Of a stretch of DNA of 64,000 nt, positions 32,169 through 43,192 are shown one piece after another. The DNA comes from Escherichia phage EC121. A program made the position numbers and the translations under genes. How positions within the stretch are numbered: position 1 is the stretch's first letter; the number at the start of each line of letters is the position of its first letter. The DNA is taken from the sequence record NC_054909.1. The stretch is one strand, 5' to 3'. A model generated the notes under the pieces. It saw nothing but the letters and a program-made list of their open reading frames with translations. It had not been told where the DNA came from and searched no databases.

Positions 32169-33851
32169 TTAAACCATTACAGTAAATCGACCAACTTTCT
32201 TCATTTGAAGATGCTGACCGTATTCTTGCGGGTCATGGTCTTTATGCGAAATTATAAAAACATTAGTGTTTTTCATTGAATTTATAATATTAGCTACACC
32301 TTTAATACCTTCGGCATCAAATGACCCATCAAACACTTCATCGAGTATTAATGTACTAATACTAACACCAGATACAATAGAAGCAATATCACGCCAAGTA
32401 AATAAAAGAGCAATATCAATTCTTGCTTTTTCACCTTCACTAAATGAAGCATAACTAAAATCTTCGCGACCACGGGATTTAATTGTCTCATTAAATTCTT
32501 CATCTAATGTAAACACATAATCCGCTTCCATTATTTTAAGATAATGGTTAATCTGCTTATTAAATAATGGAATGTACTTTTTAATAATAGCACCTTTAAT
32601 ACCAGAATCTTTGAGCATATCAGTCAAAATTCCTCGGTGGTATTTTTCCATTACTAAATTAGTTTTTGTCTTAACAATTTTATCAAGTTCTTCTTGAAGC
32701 AGTGCTATTTCATCAGCATGGTCAATAAACTCAGAAGATGCTTTTTCTATAGCCGCTTTAACCTTTTTAGCTTTATCTACTGTCGTGATTAGAGATTGCT
32801 TTTTATTGCGAATATCATTTGCCAACGACTGTTGGGTTTTAATATTATCTCGGTATTCATCAACAAGAACTTTTAAATTATCACGATGCGTTGAAAGCTG
32901 CTCAAACGAATGCGTGCATTCAGAAACTTTATCTTTAATTTTAGAAACAACTTTATCACCGGAACTCAATTGTGACAAACAGGTTGGACATAATCCACCT
33001 TCGTGATACATATTAATGACTTTATTATACGAGTCAATTTTCGATTTAATTAAAAATGCTTCTTGGCCGATTTTATTAAATGCATCAGTCGGGTCTTCAT
33101 CCAAAACAATATTAACTAATCTTTCATTAGCTTCTTCTATTTCCGATTTTAGCGTTCTAGCTTCTTTTGCTAAATCATCATACATATTTTGCAGACGAGT
33201 AAGGTTGTCACCCGTTAATTTTTTCTGGCGTTCAACGTTATCATTATATATTTTAATTTGTTGGATAATATTATCTTTTTTAACATCAAGCACCTGGTTC
33301 TGCGAATTTAATTCACGTATTAGTGCTTTATTAAGCTTATCCATTTCAGCTAATGTTCCTACCTCAAGCAGGTCTTCCACAAGCTTTCTTCGCGCAGGGG
33401 TCGACAAACCCATGAAAGGGGTATACCCTGCTGTACCAAGGACAACAATCTGCTTGAAACTGGCATATGACATTCCGATAAGCTGTTCAAATTCTGCTTG
33501 GAAATCTTTACTGCTGGCAGATTCATTAAGACGTGTACCGTTAACGGTGATTTCGAAAACGTTTGGTTTTTGTCCTCTTTTGATATAGTACTTTTTCTCA
33601 TCATATTCCATCCACAGTTCAACTAAAAGTTCTTTCTTATTTGTGCTGTTTATTAATTGACCTTTCTTTACATCACGAAATGGCTTGCCAAAAAGCCCAA
33701 ATGTGATGGCTTCTAGCATAGTAGACTTACCACCGCCATTTCGTCCAGTAATAAGAGTTTTTTGAACCTTATCTAATTGAATGTCAACTCCATTTTGACC
33801 AACTGACATTATATTTTTATATTTTACTCTATTAAGTTTAAATGATTTCAT
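32169..33851 (-). CDS. 46: recombination endonuclease subunit gp46 (SbcC/Rad50-like)
   Basis: 560 aa; Walker A GRNGGGKST, coiled-coil middle, CPTC zinc hook, ABC signature. Confidence 0.96.
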   Translation of the reverse strand: MKSFKLNRVKYKNIMSVGQNGVDIQLDKVQKTLITGRNGGGKSTMLEAITFGLFGKPFRDVKKGQLINSTNKKELLVELWMEYDEKKYYIKRGQKPNVFEITVNGTRLNESASSKDFQAEFEQLIGMSYASFKQIVVLGTAGYTPFMGLSTPARRKLVEDLLEVGTLAEMDKLNKALIRELNSQNQVLDVKKDNIIQQIKIYNDNVERQKKLTGDNLTRLQNMYDDLAKEARTLKSEIEEANERLVNIVLDEDPTDAFNKIGQEAFLIKSKIDSYNKVINMYHEGGLCPTCLSQLSSGDKVVSKIKDKVSECTHSFEQLSTHRDNLKVLVDEYRDNIKTQQSLANDIRNKKQSLITTVDKAKKVKAAIEKASSEFIDHADEIALLQEELDKIVKTKTNLVMEKYHRGILTDMLKDSGIKGAIIKKYIPLFNKQINHYLKIMEADYVFTLDEEFNETIKSRGREDFSYASFSEGEKARIDIALLFTWRDIASIVSGVSISTLILDEVFDGSFDAEGIKGVANIINSMKNTNVFIISHKDHDPQEYGQHLQMKKVGRFTVMV

Positions 33852-33866
33852 TTTGTATCCAATTGT

Positions 33867-34721
33867 TCACAATGAAGAAAATTCTTTAACTAAAGCCTGT
33901 AATGAAGCCTCTATTGGATATCCATTCTTAACTAACATTTTCCTAAACATTACATGTTTAGGACGATTATATGATATCCACAATTCATACAATTTATCTT
34001 TATTATCCCAATGATAGCCTTTTCGTCGAGATGCTATATGAGCTTTTCTAATCTCCGGATTTTTCCAACTAGCAGCTACTGAATTTGATATAGCTATTTT
34101 ATATTCAGGTTTTGATAAAGCAGCACGAACAGCCTTTTGGTGTTTAATTTTATTTTCTTCGTTATTAAACCATTCCCTTGAAGCCATTGAAATTTTTTGT
34201 TTTGTTTTAAAATTATTTAATCTTTCTTTATTATCTTTCCTATTTTTTGCTACTGAAAAATATTTTAATGCCCTTTCTCTAGCAGCATTTCTATTTTGCG
34301 GATTTGAATAATACTGTTGAAGCCTTTTTGATATTGTGTCACTTACATCTTGTTTTATAAAACTATATTCAGCAGCTATTAAATCAACTTCGGCTAAAGA
34401 TAAATTTTTATATGTTTTTCCTGACATCATTCTATTTAAAGCATTTAACATTTTTCCATTTTTACCTTTTGCTAATAAGAAGTGTGCTTTAAAATGATTA
34501 AAATGACTTAAATTAACTAAATTCCATGTAGATTTTAAATATTCAGGAAATATTGATTTAGGAAGCACGTGGTGTGCTTCCGTTTTACCTGGAGTTTTAA
34601 CAGTTGAATTCACAGAAATAAAATTAATGTAAGACTTGGCGTCTTCTTCACTCAACGCTAATTTTTCAACTAATTCCTTTATTAAAAATTCATCATTAAT
34701 GTCAAGTTTAAAATTCTTCAC
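33867..34721 (-). CDS. free-standing HNH homing endonuclease (Mob-like)
   Basis: 284 aa from GTG with AAGGA RBS; HNH motif TEAHHVLPKS; NUMOD-like repeats. Confidence 0.7.
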   Translation of the reverse strand: MKNFKLDINDEFLIKELVEKLALSEEDAKSYINFISVNSTVKTPGKTEAHHVLPKSIFPEYLKSTWNLVNLSHFNHFKAHFLLAKGKNGKMLNALNRMMSGKTYKNLSLAEVDLIAAEYSFIKQDVSDTISKRLQQYYSNPQNRNAARERALKYFSVAKNRKDNKERLNNFKTKQKISMASREWFNNEENKIKHQKAVRAALSKPEYKIAISNSVAASWKNPEIRKAHIASRRKGYHWDNKDKLYELWISYNRPKHVMFRKMLVKNGYPIEASLQALVKEFSSL

Positions 34722-34981
34722 AAAAGATTCCTTTTAATGTATCTTTTAGACCATTCTATCATATCATCATAATCTAAAAAGTATTCATCAAATTCAGCCA
34801 TGCAAACAACACCTTGTGCTGCTTTTGATGTGATATAAATTATTCCAACATATCTAGAATCTTCTTCGGTATAATCAATATTTGCTATGAATTCATCGTT
34901 AATGTCAAATGTCGAAAACTTCACAATATGCATCCTTAATACAAGATACAGCCATATCTTGTAATGATTTAGGTGTGTCAT
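34718..34981 (-). CDS. small hypothetical protein whose 5-prime region is duplicated in the HNH gene start
   Basis: 87-aa ORF; segment FDINDEFIANI mirrors LDINDEFLIKEL of the HNH gene; overlaps the upstream ORF, start uncertain. Confidence 0.35.
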   Translation of the reverse strand: MTHLNHYKIWLYLVLRMHIVKFSTFDINDEFIANIDYTEEDSRYVGIIYITSKAAQGVVCMAEFDEYFLDYDDMIEWSKRYIKRNLL

Positions 34982-35168
34982 TATCTAAAATGTTGAAGTT
35001 AAAAGATACAGCCCAGTCAGTGCAGACCGTAACCTTTTTAATACAATTATCTTCAACCTCTAGCGGTTCAAACCAATATTCAATAATTTCTTTATGCCCA
35101 ATATCATCTTTTACTTCGCATTCAAAATGCTGACTCATCATAACATTTTTAAATTCATCAAAAGTCAT
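34905..35168 (-). CDS. small hypothetical protein
   Basis: 87-aa ORF overlapping the gene 47 stop by 4 nt. Confidence 0.45.
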   Translation of the reverse strand: MTFDEFKNVMMSQHFECEVKDDIGHKEIIEYWFEPLEVEDNCIKKVTVCTDWAVSFNFNILDNDTPKSLQDMAVSCIKDAYCEVFDI

Positions 35169-36184
35169 TGTGTTGCCTCTACATATAGCTGATTCGCATA
35201 TTGAATAAGTGCTTCACGGTCAGAATCAGTGATGTCTGGAATTGCATTAATGTATTCTTCCATCAACGTCTGAAGAGATTGAACTTCAACTTCTTCACTG
35301 TCATCTGACTCGACAGAGTTATCAATCTTTGACACAACTCGTAACGAATGCACAACTTTTTCTAGTTCAGATTCGAACTTCGTCAGATTTTTGTCTACTT
35401 CAGTTACTATAACACGTACTGATAGATTTGTAAAATCTTTATAGTCAATTTTTCCCTTAAATGGATATTGAATTCGACGATGCCAGGTAGTGTTGTTTGG
35501 AATAAATTCCATTCGTTCTGTTTCTGTGTCAAACATCCAGAACCCACGAGGGTCATTCTCGTCACCTGCAGTTAGTGTCCATGGTGTCCCAATATATCTG
35601 ACGTTTGCAGCCTCAGAAATAGTATGGAAGTGACCAGACCACACTTCTTTATAAGTCTTAAGGAAATCAGGTTCAAGACCGTGAGATTTCATTCCTTTAT
35701 AAAAATAAAATCCATTCAGTTCCCAGTGACCAACACAAAAAGAAGCAGATGAAGTTTTGATGTGTTCAAGAATTTCACCAGTATTTTCTTCGCACATCCA
35801 AGGAATTAAATCAATCAAACACCCGTCAAAATCTACTGTTGTAGGCTTATCATATACTTTAACATTAGGATATTTAGCCAAAAGCTCAGTAGAGGCATTT
35901 GGATGCATTACATTTTTGTAGTGGAGATCGTGATTTCCTACAATAGTATGTAGGGTAATACCAGCACCATCAAGCATTTGAACTATTTCACGGGCAAACT
36001 CCATAGTTTTATGCGTGATCGCTTTTCGCACATCAAAAATATCACCGTATTGAATCCATACCGTAATTCCATTTTTCTTAGAATATTCTATCGCTTGCTT
36101 AATTCCATCAATTTGAATACCGCGAATCCACTCATCATCAGCTTTAACGCCTAAATGCCAATCACCTAAATTTAAAATTTTCAT
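35165..36184 (-). CDS. 47: recombination nuclease subunit gp47 (SbcD/Mre11-like)
   Basis: 339 aa; calcineurin-like phosphoesterase motifs (DWHLG, GNHD). Confidence 0.96.
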   Translation of the reverse strand: MKILNLGDWHLGVKADDEWIRGIQIDGIKQAIEYSKKNGITVWIQYGDIFDVRKAITHKTMEFAREIVQMLDGAGITLHTIVGNHDLHYKNVMHPNASTELLAKYPNVKVYDKPTTVDFDGCLIDLIPWMCEENTGEILEHIKTSSASFCVGHWELNGFYFYKGMKSHGLEPDFLKTYKEVWSGHFHTISEAANVRYIGTPWTLTAGDENDPRGFWMFDTETERMEFIPNNTTWHRRIQYPFKGKIDYKDFTNLSVRVIVTEVDKNLTKFESELEKVVHSLRVVSKIDNSVESDDSEEVEVQSLQTLMEEYINAIPDITDSDREALIQYANQLYVEATQ

Positions 36185-41894: not shown

Positions 41895-42365
41895 TTAATC
41901 ATGTTTCCACACCCCATCGGTATTTGACCAAAGTCGCTGATTATCTGATCCTCGCCACAGCTTTTTAGTCGGAAGATTTTTCTCATACTTCCCATCAATA
42001 ATAACATCAACATATTTAAGCATTTCTAGTTGTTTAATATCTTCAAACTTATATCCTGTCCACAACCAAATGCTTTTATTTGGATAAAGATTTTTTACTG
42101 TTTGAACAATGCAATGAACAGCATCTCGGTTATCAGGATAGAGAGGGTCTCCTCCAGTTATAGTTAATCCTTCTATATAATCGTTATTCAAACATTCAAT
42201 TAATTGTTCCAGCGTTTCACCAGTGAATGGAACACCATTTCTAGCATTCCATGTTGATTTATTATAACACCCTTCGCATTTATGCAAACAACCTGTAACG
42301 AAAAGAACGACCCTGCAACCAGGGCCATTCACAAAGCAGCACGGGTATATTCTGTCATAATTCAT
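41895..42365 (-). CDS. nrdG: anaerobic ribonucleotide reductase activase NrdG (radical SAM)
   Basis: 156 aa from ATG at 42365; cysteine cluster CLHKCEGC; ATGA overlap with the upstream endonuclease gene. Confidence 0.9.
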   Translation of the reverse strand: MNYDRIYPCCFVNGPGCRVVLFVTGCLHKCEGCYNKSTWNARNGVPFTGETLEQLIECLNNDYIEGLTITGGDPLYPDNRDAVHCIVQTVKNLYPNKSIWLWTGYKFEDIKQLEMLKYVDVIIDGKYEKNLPTKKLWRGSDNQRLWSNTDGVWKHD

Positions 42366-43192
42366 AATAATATCCAATTTTTCCAAGCTTCATCAGTAGA
42401 ATTACAGCGTTTTAGTATAAGATGTCTAGAAACTTTTATGGCATTTGAGCACTTTTTAATTGAATCATATTTAATACCGTCAACTGAAACGGTTTTGCTA
42501 GTTGGAGAAATTTTTCCATACATTGGATTTTTTGAACCAACTTGAAGTCCTTTTAAAGCTTTTGAAAGCTTTTGTCTAGATTCCAATGACATGGGAGAAT
42601 TCTTTTTACCTTCAATAATTCGCTTGCGATGAAGTTCGCGTTCTTCTTCACTCAAAGAATTGTAATATTTTTTAACACCGTTTGATATAGATAATTTATC
42701 TTTCTCAGACCGCTCTCCAGCTAATTTACTTCTAACATCTTTTCGCTTCATAGCTATGCTTACGGCTTTATTTAAATTTGCTTGATGCTCTGGCGTACGT
42801 TTATATTTCTTTAAAGCACGTGAAATAGCTATTTTAGTTTCTTCTGTTCTCTTTTTACCTTTATTTGCTAAACTATTTTTGCGGCGATGTTCAAGTGTCT
42901 GTTCATAGGCAGTTCCACCTTTTCCACCAGGTTTAATATTATATGTATTTTCTTTTAGACAATACTCTTCGGTTACAAGTTCAGCTTCTTTATCATACAT
43001 TTGTTTTTCATTATCAAAAACATGTAAAATTTCTTTATTAAAATTTTTTCTACCATATTTTAATAAAGCGGCACGAATCAATGTTCCTGACCCCATATAA
43101 CCGTCATTTATGTTATCGGTGCTATGCGCACCGATATATTCCTTTGAATTAATTATATTTGTTATTTTATAAATTATATAATACCTATGCAT
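42362..43192 (-). CDS. free-standing GIY-YIG homing endonuclease
   Basis: 276 aa; canonical YYIIYKITN...KEYIGAH motif, NUMOD-like repeats, C-terminal HTH-like tail; wedged between nrdD and nrdG with overlaps on both sides. Confidence 0.8.
   Translation of the reverse strand: MHRYYIIYKITNIINSKEYIGAHSTDNINDGYMGSGTLIRAALLKYGRKNFNKEILHVFDNEKQMYDKEAELVTEEYCLKENTYNIKPGGKGGTAYEQTLEHRRKNSLANKGKKRTEETKIAISRALKKYKRTPEHQANLNKAVSIAMKRKDVRSKLAGERSEKDKLSISNGVKKYYNSLSEEERELHRKRIIEGKKNSPMSLESRQKLSKALKGLQVGSKNPMYGKISPTSKTVSVDGIKYDSIKKCSNAIKVSRHLILKRCNSTDEAWKNWILL

Follow-up and report, generated by a model that had tools for sequence, protein, structure and literature searches.

A predicted Mob-family HNH homing endonuclease gene fused to the start of gene 46 in Escherichia phage EC121

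Introduction

Bacteriophage T4 is already known for free-standing HNH endonuclease genes, for their translational coupling to the gene upstream and for mobile elements that embed signals of the downstream gene (PMC2988022), and what is described here is an increment to that picture. The T4 gene for MobE, between nrdA and nrdB (PMC2790892, PMC2988022), is a promoter-less, free-standing Mob-type HNH gene in an essential operon, with a start that overlaps the stop of the upstream gene. SegF (gene 56) and SegG (gene 32) of T4 are likewise encoded by free-standing genes beside the conserved gene that is cut, and they spread via break repair with co-conversion of flanking markers (PMC2988022). The present work concerns a predicted HNH endonuclease gene between genes 46.1 and 46 of Escherichia phage EC121 (NC_054909.1), of which a stretch of 64,000 nucleotides (nt), here called the window, was analysed. 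This gene resembles that of MobE in all of the above respects, its own overlap with the upstream stop again suggesting translational coupling; both are variably present among T-even phages, and the target in each case is, or in EC121 would be, the conserved gene adjoining the insertion site.

The window derives from a Tequatrovirus (T4-like) genome, and its locus region is 96-99% identical to Tequatrovirus phages. We propose that an 870-base-pair (bp) element carrying the Mob-family HNH gene was inserted in the 5' end of gene 46, after codon 6, a reading to which we assign a probability of roughly 0.8. Petrov et al. recorded one "other HNH" endonuclease gene each in T2, T6 and RB51/RB70 (PMC2993671), which is probably the gene described here. 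The T4 review lists no endonuclease at the 46.1/46 locus (PMC2988022), T4 itself being without one, and no paper naming or dissecting an endonuclease at this junction was found in the literature.

Anatomy of the proposed insertion

Five genomes without the endonuclease (T4, ERS-1, PYPS2T, RB32 and RB9, hereafter "empty") were aligned with five carriers (the window, T6, PP01, SV76 and RB51). The result is a single clean 870-bp insertion or deletion (indel) with the same boundaries in all ten, the block lying directly after codon 6 of gene 46. Genes 47, 46.2, 46.1, the HNH open reading frame (ORF) and gene 46 are all on the minus strand; the features on which the argument turns are as follows.

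34718-34924, minus strand: gene 46.1 (DUF5487, 68 codons, GTG start at 34922-34924); Pfam PF17589, E=2e-48, whole model covered.
33867-34721, minus strand: HNH homing-endonuclease ORF, predicted, free-standing, Mob-type, 284 residues, intact in EC121; PHROG matches, motif, annotation of T6 and PP01.
32169-33851, minus strand: gene 46 (Rad50/SbcC-like recombination nuclease subunit, 560 residues), its 5' end invaded; ORF, and annotations in T4, T6 and PP01.
33834-34703, minus strand: inserted block, 870 bp; alignments with endonuclease-free and endonuclease-carrying genomes.
34729-34733, minus strand: Shine-Dalgarno sequence AAGGA, 7 nt upstream of the GTG, native to gene 46 and now serving the endonuclease; identical in T4.
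34704-34721, minus strand: left copy of gene 46 codons 1-6, GTGAAGAATTTTAAACTT (VKNFKL), now endonuclease codons 1-6; 18/18 against the T4 gene 46 start.
33852-33866, minus strand: 15-nt spacer, ACAATTGGATACAAA, from the endonuclease stop (TGA, 33867-33869) to the new gene 46 ATG; only a weak Shine-Dalgarno-like GGA.
33834-33851, minus strand: right copy of gene 46 codons 1-6, recoded as ATGAAATCATTTAAACTT (MKSFKL), the working start of gene 46; from the insert.

In the empty genomes, gene 46 starts AAGGAATCTTTT GTG AAG AAT TTT AAA CTT / AAT AGA GTA (the stroke marks the junction here and below), with its GTG overlapping the 46.1 stop. Carriers have the same 18 nt, followed by GAC ATT AAT GAT GAA TTT and the rest of the endonuclease, and the 3' end of the insert then runs TGA ACAATTGGATACAAA ATG AAA TCA TTT AAA CTT / AAT AGA GTA. 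Thus, where empty genomes read ...AAGGAATCTTTTGTGAAGAATTTTAAACTT/AAT..., carriers have 870 nt in between, ending ...TGAACAATTGGATACAAAATGAAATCATTTAAACTT/AAT. Because TTTAAACTT is present at both edges, the boundaries of the insert can slide by up to 9 nt.

Judged from these alignments, the insertion left as its footprint the start of gene 46 in two imperfect 18-nt copies (34704-34721 and 33834-33851). The endonuclease ORF continues in frame from gene 46's own Shine-Dalgarno sequence, GTG and first six codons, the overlap of this GTG with the 46.1 stop (GTGA) being inherited from gene 46, and the new ATG and recoded six codons, which come from the insert, keep gene 46 intact. The left and right copies agree at 13 of 18 positions, the last nine (TTTAAACTT) being identical. 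The right copy belongs to a foreign type of allele, its first 15 nt being those of the gene 46 start in the endonuclease-free Mosigvirus mar005P1. A pattern of this kind is what recombination with repair, rather than transposition, would leave. A transposon-type target-site duplication was considered and rejected, as five positions separate the copies, the start codon among them (GTG versus ATG), and only 9 nt are identical. In the 15-nt spacer, a search for stable RNA structure found none.

The direct repeat

A first-pass annotation of this DNA had described an imperfect direct repeat joining the start of the HNH ORF with that of the upstream small gene, and this is borne out. A repeat search pairs 34678-34723 with 34881-34926, with 35 of 46 nt identical (76%) at a spacing of 203; it is the sole pair in the 64-kb window to reach 35/46 at a spacing of up to 1 kb. 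A separate position count gives 36/49, with 32/42 for the best 42-nt stretch, so that the 35 of 42 originally reported was a slight overstatement. The second interval of the annotation also lay 3-5 nt off register: the partner of 34690-34725 is 34893-34928 (28/36), and at the offsets that had been implied (198-202) the matches drop to 6-12 of 36. The peptides quoted for the two copies are indeed encoded there, and the HNH ORF does begin at GTG (34719-34721). What had been taken as an 87-residue neighbouring gene is a mechanical ORF around 46.1, the annotated gene having 68 codons. Each repeat copy occupies the first 12 codons of its gene behind a GTG, the 46.1 start also being GTG, and the register is the same for both.

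Pure chance is ruled out as the source of the repeat by dinucleotide-preserving shuffles of the whole window, the best of 120 reaching 33/46. The repeat has two parts, namely a resemblance between the 46.1 and 46 starts and a 19-nt core, TTGACATTAAYGATGAATT (L/F-DINDEF), the copies of which are as follows.

34890-34908, minus strand: 46.1 copy of the core, TTGACATTAACGATGAATT (codons 6-12, F-DINDEF), native to 46.1; conserved in homologues and present in T4.
34687-34705, minus strand: endonuclease copy of the core, TTGACATTAATGATGAATT (L-DINDEF), at the extreme 5' end of the inserted block; repeat search.

The two copies of the core differ by one mismatch in the window and are exact in T6. A match of 18/19 by itself is attained in 8 of the 120 shuffles; the 46.1 copy of T4 and T6 reads AAT, which makes it 19/19 against the endonuclease copy, and this is attained in none. 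As for the left part, the 46.1 and 46 starts of endonuclease-free T4 already share 13 of 21 nt (TGTGAAG..TT..A.A.TT; beyond that, 7/25), so this part is not a footprint of the insertion. The first-pass annotation had itself named the presence of both copies in endonuclease-free relatives as the finding that would overturn its proposal, and for the left third of the repeat T4 presents just that. For the core, on the other hand, the comparison turns out as had been predicted: the endonuclease copy is missing from the gene 46 start of endonuclease-free genomes, and GACATTAATGATGAATT occurs once in T4 and twice in T6.

A promoter or terminator function of the repeat, the core of which contains TTGACA, was considered and rejected: a σ70 scan gives no site at either copy, and counts are not above those of shuffles. 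No RNA structure burying either start was found (z-scores -0.3 to +0.7).

The endonuclease protein

The ORF at 33867-34721 is a predicted, uncharacterised, free-standing Mob-family HNH homing-endonuclease gene. It matches phrog_655 ("homing endonuclease", E=8e-45) and phrog_12434 ("HNH endonuclease", E=4e-15), the RefSeq records of T6 and PP01 annotate it as "homing endonuclease", and HMMER finds 967 homologues. The protein carries the motif AHHVLPKS (histidines 50 and 51), WNLVNLS (N67) and HFKAH (H76 and H80), in which H50, H51, P54, N67, H76 and H80 are invariant in an alignment of 60 homologues; among these 60, 5 match PF01844 (HNH), 17 NUMOD3 and 5 the I-HmuI NUMOD-like domain. In an AlphaFold2 model (predicted local distance difference test score 94.9), strands 47-51 and 68-72 and the helix 73-84 make up a beta-beta-alpha unit that spans residues 47-84, and helical modules come after it. 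Among annotated T-even enzymes, identity to mobD is ~30% over residues 47-281 (tblastn) and to mobC 35% for the protein and 75% for the DNA over 165 nt (the HNH core), and mobA matches at 41.7% over part of a 93-residue N-terminal query.

The N-terminus of the endonuclease, as modelled and aligned, is extended, whichever origin of the core holds. Its catalytic HH falls at residue 49, whereas most of the 154 representatives of the family have it at 35-42 and the nearest one at 39, and residues 1-9 form a low-confidence coil in the model.

The catalytic EAHHVLP codons (34561-34581) coincide exactly with an inverted repeat rich in G+C (coding strand: GGAAGCAC-N5-GTGCTTCC), in a gene that is otherwise A+T-rich; by scan the repeat is terminator-like on the antisense (plus) strand. 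A second Mob-type HH[IV]LP motif is absent from the window.

Distribution, relatives and decay

A match to the locus occurs in 519 phage records. The full region is present in 70 of them (T6, T2, RB51, PP01 and others), and the other records listed, T4 included, match over a 1131-nt span only; T4 and ~450 other Tequatrovirus records are without the 870-bp block. The nearest relatives of the endonuclease, at 44% identity over nearly the full length, are those of the Salmonella phage Melville (Gelderlandvirus) and of the E. coli Mosigvirus phages G2469 and phiEC1, and these, too, lie immediately upstream of gene 46. Comparing G2469 with endonuclease-free mar005P1 places the right junction again at gene 46 codon 3/TTTAAA, and gene 46 codons 1-3 differ between carrier and empty allele in both genera compared. 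Melville is identical to T4 over the 25 nt TTTAAACTTAATAGAGTAAAATAT.

At the other end, G2469 (1444-1465) and mar005P1 (665-686) are identical over 22 nt and diverge thereafter, phiEC1 being likewise orthologous: the Mosigvirus endonuclease is fused to the first seven codons of 46.1 and replaces the 46.1 body. Capture of a neighbouring start is seen in three cases, namely at gene 46 (EC121), at 46.1 (Mosigvirus G2469) and at nrdG (mobC-type).

Several copies have decayed. T2 and SV76 share a 2-nt deletion (annotated as two ORFs; SV76 1080-1932), RB51 and RB68 a 1-nt deletion (unannotated in RB51; RB51 1084-1948), and the ORF is split in Gelderlandvirus CF-SP2 (1489-2338). Three hallmarks of homing endonuclease genes are seen, namely presence/absence polymorphism at a precise site, one lineage at one conserved target across genera, and decay of copies after fixation.

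The junction also varies in other ways. In endonuclease-free RB32 and RB9 (~1097-1152; window 33788-33834), a 55-nt patch with 14 substitutions starts exactly at the insertion site; it reads TTTAAACT/AAACCGAGTTAGGTATCAA..., and the gp46 N-terminus is Mosigvirus-like (NRVRYQNIMSVGGNP). The patch may mark an allele that resists cleavage, or else a tract converted from some other donor. In YenM_P8 (683-960) and UPEC07 (1525-1800), the 46.1 body is of T4 type but gene 46 is not (VKTFKLKKVIYKNIM), the 46.1 5' end differs (FNLDDEF), and the mosaic boundaries coincide with the 46.1/46 junction that the endonuclease occupies elsewhere; their annotated gene 46 start, an internal ATG, is probably placed too far downstream. 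In phage kvi (174-3234), a homologue of the endonuclease lies between two ORFs annotated as DNA polymerase (split gene 43, as in RB49-type phages).

Flanking genes

Upstream of the endonuclease, 46.1 is annotated as a 207-nt coding sequence in T4, T6 and PP01, and homologues from five other genera share the equivalent start site. Two further genes precede it.

34905-35168, minus strand: gene 46.2 (T4_Y03C family, 87 residues); Pfam PF25721, E=1e-43, and annotations in T4, T6 and PP01.
35165-36184, minus strand: gene 47 (Mre11/SbcD-like recombination nuclease subunit), upstream context; 339-residue ORF, gp47 annotation in T4, T6 and PP01.

The TGA stop of 46.2 (34905-34907) falls within the 46.1 copy of the repeat.

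Insertion, loss or capture from 46.1

In the course of events that we propose, the enzyme would cut or nick endonuclease-free alleles near TTTAAACTT/AATAGAG, and the block would be copied in during repair of the break (intronless homing). The site, now split and recoded, would shield carrier genomes from cleavage, and gene 46 would now be translated from the weak new start, or by ribosomes that re-initiate once past the stop of the endonuclease. For the predicted endonuclease we infer cleavage as well as self-protection and preferential inheritance. Several observations weigh against this account. No flanking single-nucleotide polymorphism is strictly linked to the insert in the five carriers and five empty genomes, and a co-conversion tract is not visible. 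The assignment to the HNH class draws on family homology and the motif, because the protein itself has no match to the Pfam HNH or NCBIfam models, to a PDB sequence or to a solved HNH fold. The direction of the indel could also be reversed, since recombination between the two TTTAAACTT copies recreates the T4 allele exactly. Were the endonuclease ancestral in Tequatrovirus and repeatedly lost through a crossover in this flanking 9-nt repeat, one would expect just such an allele; the endonuclease copies (98.2-100% identical) have, moreover, diverged about as much as their flanks, and decayed copies do exist. Loss nonetheless strikes us as improbable: Teguna-, Kanagawa- and Mosigvirus, and fDHCT2 as well, as a rule have empty sites in which the 46.1 stop overlaps the start of gene 46, the distribution is patchy (the 70 of 519 records noted above), and the right six-codon copy is foreign (Mosigvirus-like), suggesting import.

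The first-pass annotation had offered another version, in which the endonuclease took the initiation region of the upstream 46.1 and the whole 42-bp repeat is the footprint. The repeat is statistically real, both copies stand at codons 1-12 behind a GTG, and the DINDEF core is single-copy in endonuclease-free genomes, all as such an origin would have it. Yet endonuclease codons 1-6, with their Shine-Dalgarno sequence and GTG, match the T4 gene 46 start at 18/18 and the 46.1 start at only 12/18; the upstream context of 46.1 has no duplicate; the left part of the repeat is there without the endonuclease; and the true terminal duplication concerns gene 46, not 46.1. This origin is therefore very unlikely. 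What survives of it is that the region is a homing-endonuclease insertion footprint and that a start, with its GTG, was captured. The start came from gene 46 downstream, as its identity in endonuclease-free T4 indicates, and not from the upstream ORF; the principal duplication, of gene 46 codons 1-6 at both insert ends, had been missed; and as to copying from the upstream neighbour, the initiation region drops out and only the 19-nt DINDEF core could derive from 46.1.

Origin of the DINDEF core

Our preferred, if tentative, origin for the core, at a little under even odds, is that it was copied from 46.1. The element would once have begun at the 46.1 start, where its Mosigvirus orthologue begins to this day. 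A broken end of gene 46 (...GTGAAGAATTTTAAACTT-3', ending TTTAAACTT) would then have annealed, with the register kept, to the similar start GTGAAGTTTTCGACATTT of 46.1 in a 46.1::endonuclease donor, and synthesis would have run through GACATTAATGATGAATT and the endonuclease, leaving 46.1 codons 7-12 at the front of the copied block. That the element can use 46.1 starts is shown by the G2469 endonuclease, fused as it is to the first 22 nt of Mosigvirus 46.1, and the one-step priming model is suggested by this fusion together with two further findings. The stretch is 46.1's own: the 46.1 homologues of Mosig-, Kanagawa-, Teguna- and Karamvirus conserve F-x-I-x-D-x-[FW], FDINDEFIANI aligns ungapped to FHIGDGWFGNI, FYLGDGWYGSV and FSIGDGYIGIV in four other genera, and in 503 records with a 46.1 at least 95% identical to that of the window the DINDEF stretch is aligned in carriers and empty genomes alike. 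The nearest endonuclease relatives, for their part, have no DINDEF. A chance origin of the core was rejected, given six identical residues at the same codon positions of adjacent genes and 19/19 identity of the DNA in T6. On the other side of the ledger, none of 50,697 phage records contains a T4-type 46.1(1-12)::endonuclease intermediate, an artificial junction used as BLAST query giving two-piece matches only. Wider sampling for intermediates, by an IMG/VR protein-pattern scan, a degenerate DINDEFLIK DNA pattern and a JGI metagenome scan, gave nothing, and a word-indexed protein search gave only 6 hits. Family members in unrelated contexts also start MDIN or VDIN (VDINIENILK in ZZ1; MDINFKSALK at the 56/soc locus), so DIN-x-E-x-h-h-K may be the endonuclease's own N-terminus.

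If it is, DINDEF would be the ancestral N-terminus (M-DINDEF-LIK...), of which only the ATG was lost on fusion to gene 46 codon 6, and the likeness to 46.1 would be convergence sharpened by short-patch gene conversion between neighbouring look-alikes. Family starts are often M-(x)-D-I-x-x-E-x-h-h-K (besides ZZ1, MDINFKSVLK in P0016, MIDIKEKLL in P0015, MIDAETILK in Melville and MIDTICILK in P0007), the six added gene 46 codons roughly explain the length offset to the nearest relative, and the modelled helix 1 starts at D10-E11-F12. We regard this as unlikely, though a serious contender: a run of six identical residues, placed at the same codons of two adjacent genes, is far below chance (by our own rough estimate, 0.06^6 per register), the DNA is 19/19 identical in T6, the closest relatives, at 44% identity, are without DINDEF, and no evidence of a conversion tract was found. 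Least credible of all, to the point of being barely tenable, is the converse, that the 46.1 5' end is the relic of an earlier insertion of a like element, VKFSTF being a decayed VKNFKL followed by the endonuclease DINDEF. The 46.1 and 46 starts are indeed alike even in T4 (TGTGAAG, 12/18 in the coding part), and the closest outgroup 46.1 (YenM_P8) has FNLDDEF and not FDINDEF. But the ungapped alignment of FDINDEFIANI in four other genera speaks for a stretch native to 46.1, the rest of 46.1 is dissimilar to the endonuclease, and 12/18 beside 19/19 is hard to reconcile with one old event. Between copying from 46.1 and a native N-terminus, the sequence upstream of GAYATTAAYGAYGAATTTTTAATAAAGG in some further relative would be telling: GTGAAGTTTTCGACATTT there would favour capture from 46.1, a free ATG with its own Shine-Dalgarno sequence the native N-terminus.

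Implications

For the locus itself, the consequence is a corrected annotation: the GTG, Shine-Dalgarno sequence and first six residues of the endonuclease go back to gene 46, whose present working start was brought in from outside. The analysis also yields a predicted cleavage site for the uncharacterised endonuclease of T2, T6 and RB51, TTTAAACTT/AATAGAG, at gene 46 codons 4-8. No description of this insertion anatomy, an in-frame fusion to the target's six codons with an imported 5' end, was found in the literature, and it recurs at mobC/nrdG and at Mosigvirus 46.1.

A broader reading, speculative and on balance doubtful when taken as a whole, would be that Mob-family genes settle as a rule by in-frame capture of a neighbour's first codons and ribosome-binding site, bringing with them a recoded spare 5' end. 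The spare end would both restore the invaded gene and disarm the target site, and the core would be the fossil of a hop from 46.1 to the gene 46 start, 203 nt downstream, by in-register priming on look-alike GTGAAG starts.

Comparison with known systems

The likeness to MobE set out above has its limits. MobE has its own AUG and lies between genes, whereas the EC121 element lies inside the target ORF after codon 6, uses the target's Shine-Dalgarno sequence and GTG, and carries a spare target 5' end; the activity of MobE has been demonstrated, and that of the EC121 protein is predicted. By DNA, the closest T-even paralogue is the mobC-type gene (nrdD/nrdG; PMC2988022 Table 1; annotated mobC in phage PST), on the strength of the 165-nt match already given. 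In UFV-AREG1 (1492-1535 versus 2321-2364), the first ~13 codons of the mobC-type gene are a diverged copy of the downstream nrdG start (MNYDRFYPCDFVN versus MNYDRIYPCCFVN), which is the same design as in EC121, a fusion to the target's first codons with a duplicated 5' end. The locus and target are different, the duplicated stretch is longer and more diverged, and the case is known here from carrier sequence only. The window does not offer an empty mobC/nrdG site for comparison: ahead of its nrdG start (~42362; region ~42240-42480, minus strand) lies unrelated sequence that has stop codons in frame with nrdG and is unlike the mobC-type endonuclease of UFV-AREG1.

The endonucleases of Melville ("MobD-like"), G2469 and phiEC1 share with that of EC121 the position at the 5' end of gene 46 and the right junction at TTTAAA, codons 3-5. 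They differ in that their 3' end overlaps the gene 46 start by 14 nt, with no spacer, and in their own starts, which lie at the gene 47 stop in Melville and in the first seven codons of 46.1 in G2469, with neither a gene 46 fusion nor DINDEF. SegF and SegG are more distant, being GIY-YIG enzymes that are encoded between genes and whose homing has been demonstrated experimentally. Here, too, elements for expression of the downstream gene reside in the mobile element, promoters in segG and a start codon with six codons in EC121, an arrangement that favours retention. Insertion within an essential coding region, as in EC121, is also found in nrdA of Aeh1, split by mobE (PMC3045599), and in gene 43 of RB49-type phages. 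There, the host gene ends up encoding two separate polypeptides, whereas the six-codon duplication in EC121 avoids the split, and the locus would thus exemplify a selfish gene that resides within an essential ORF without dividing it.

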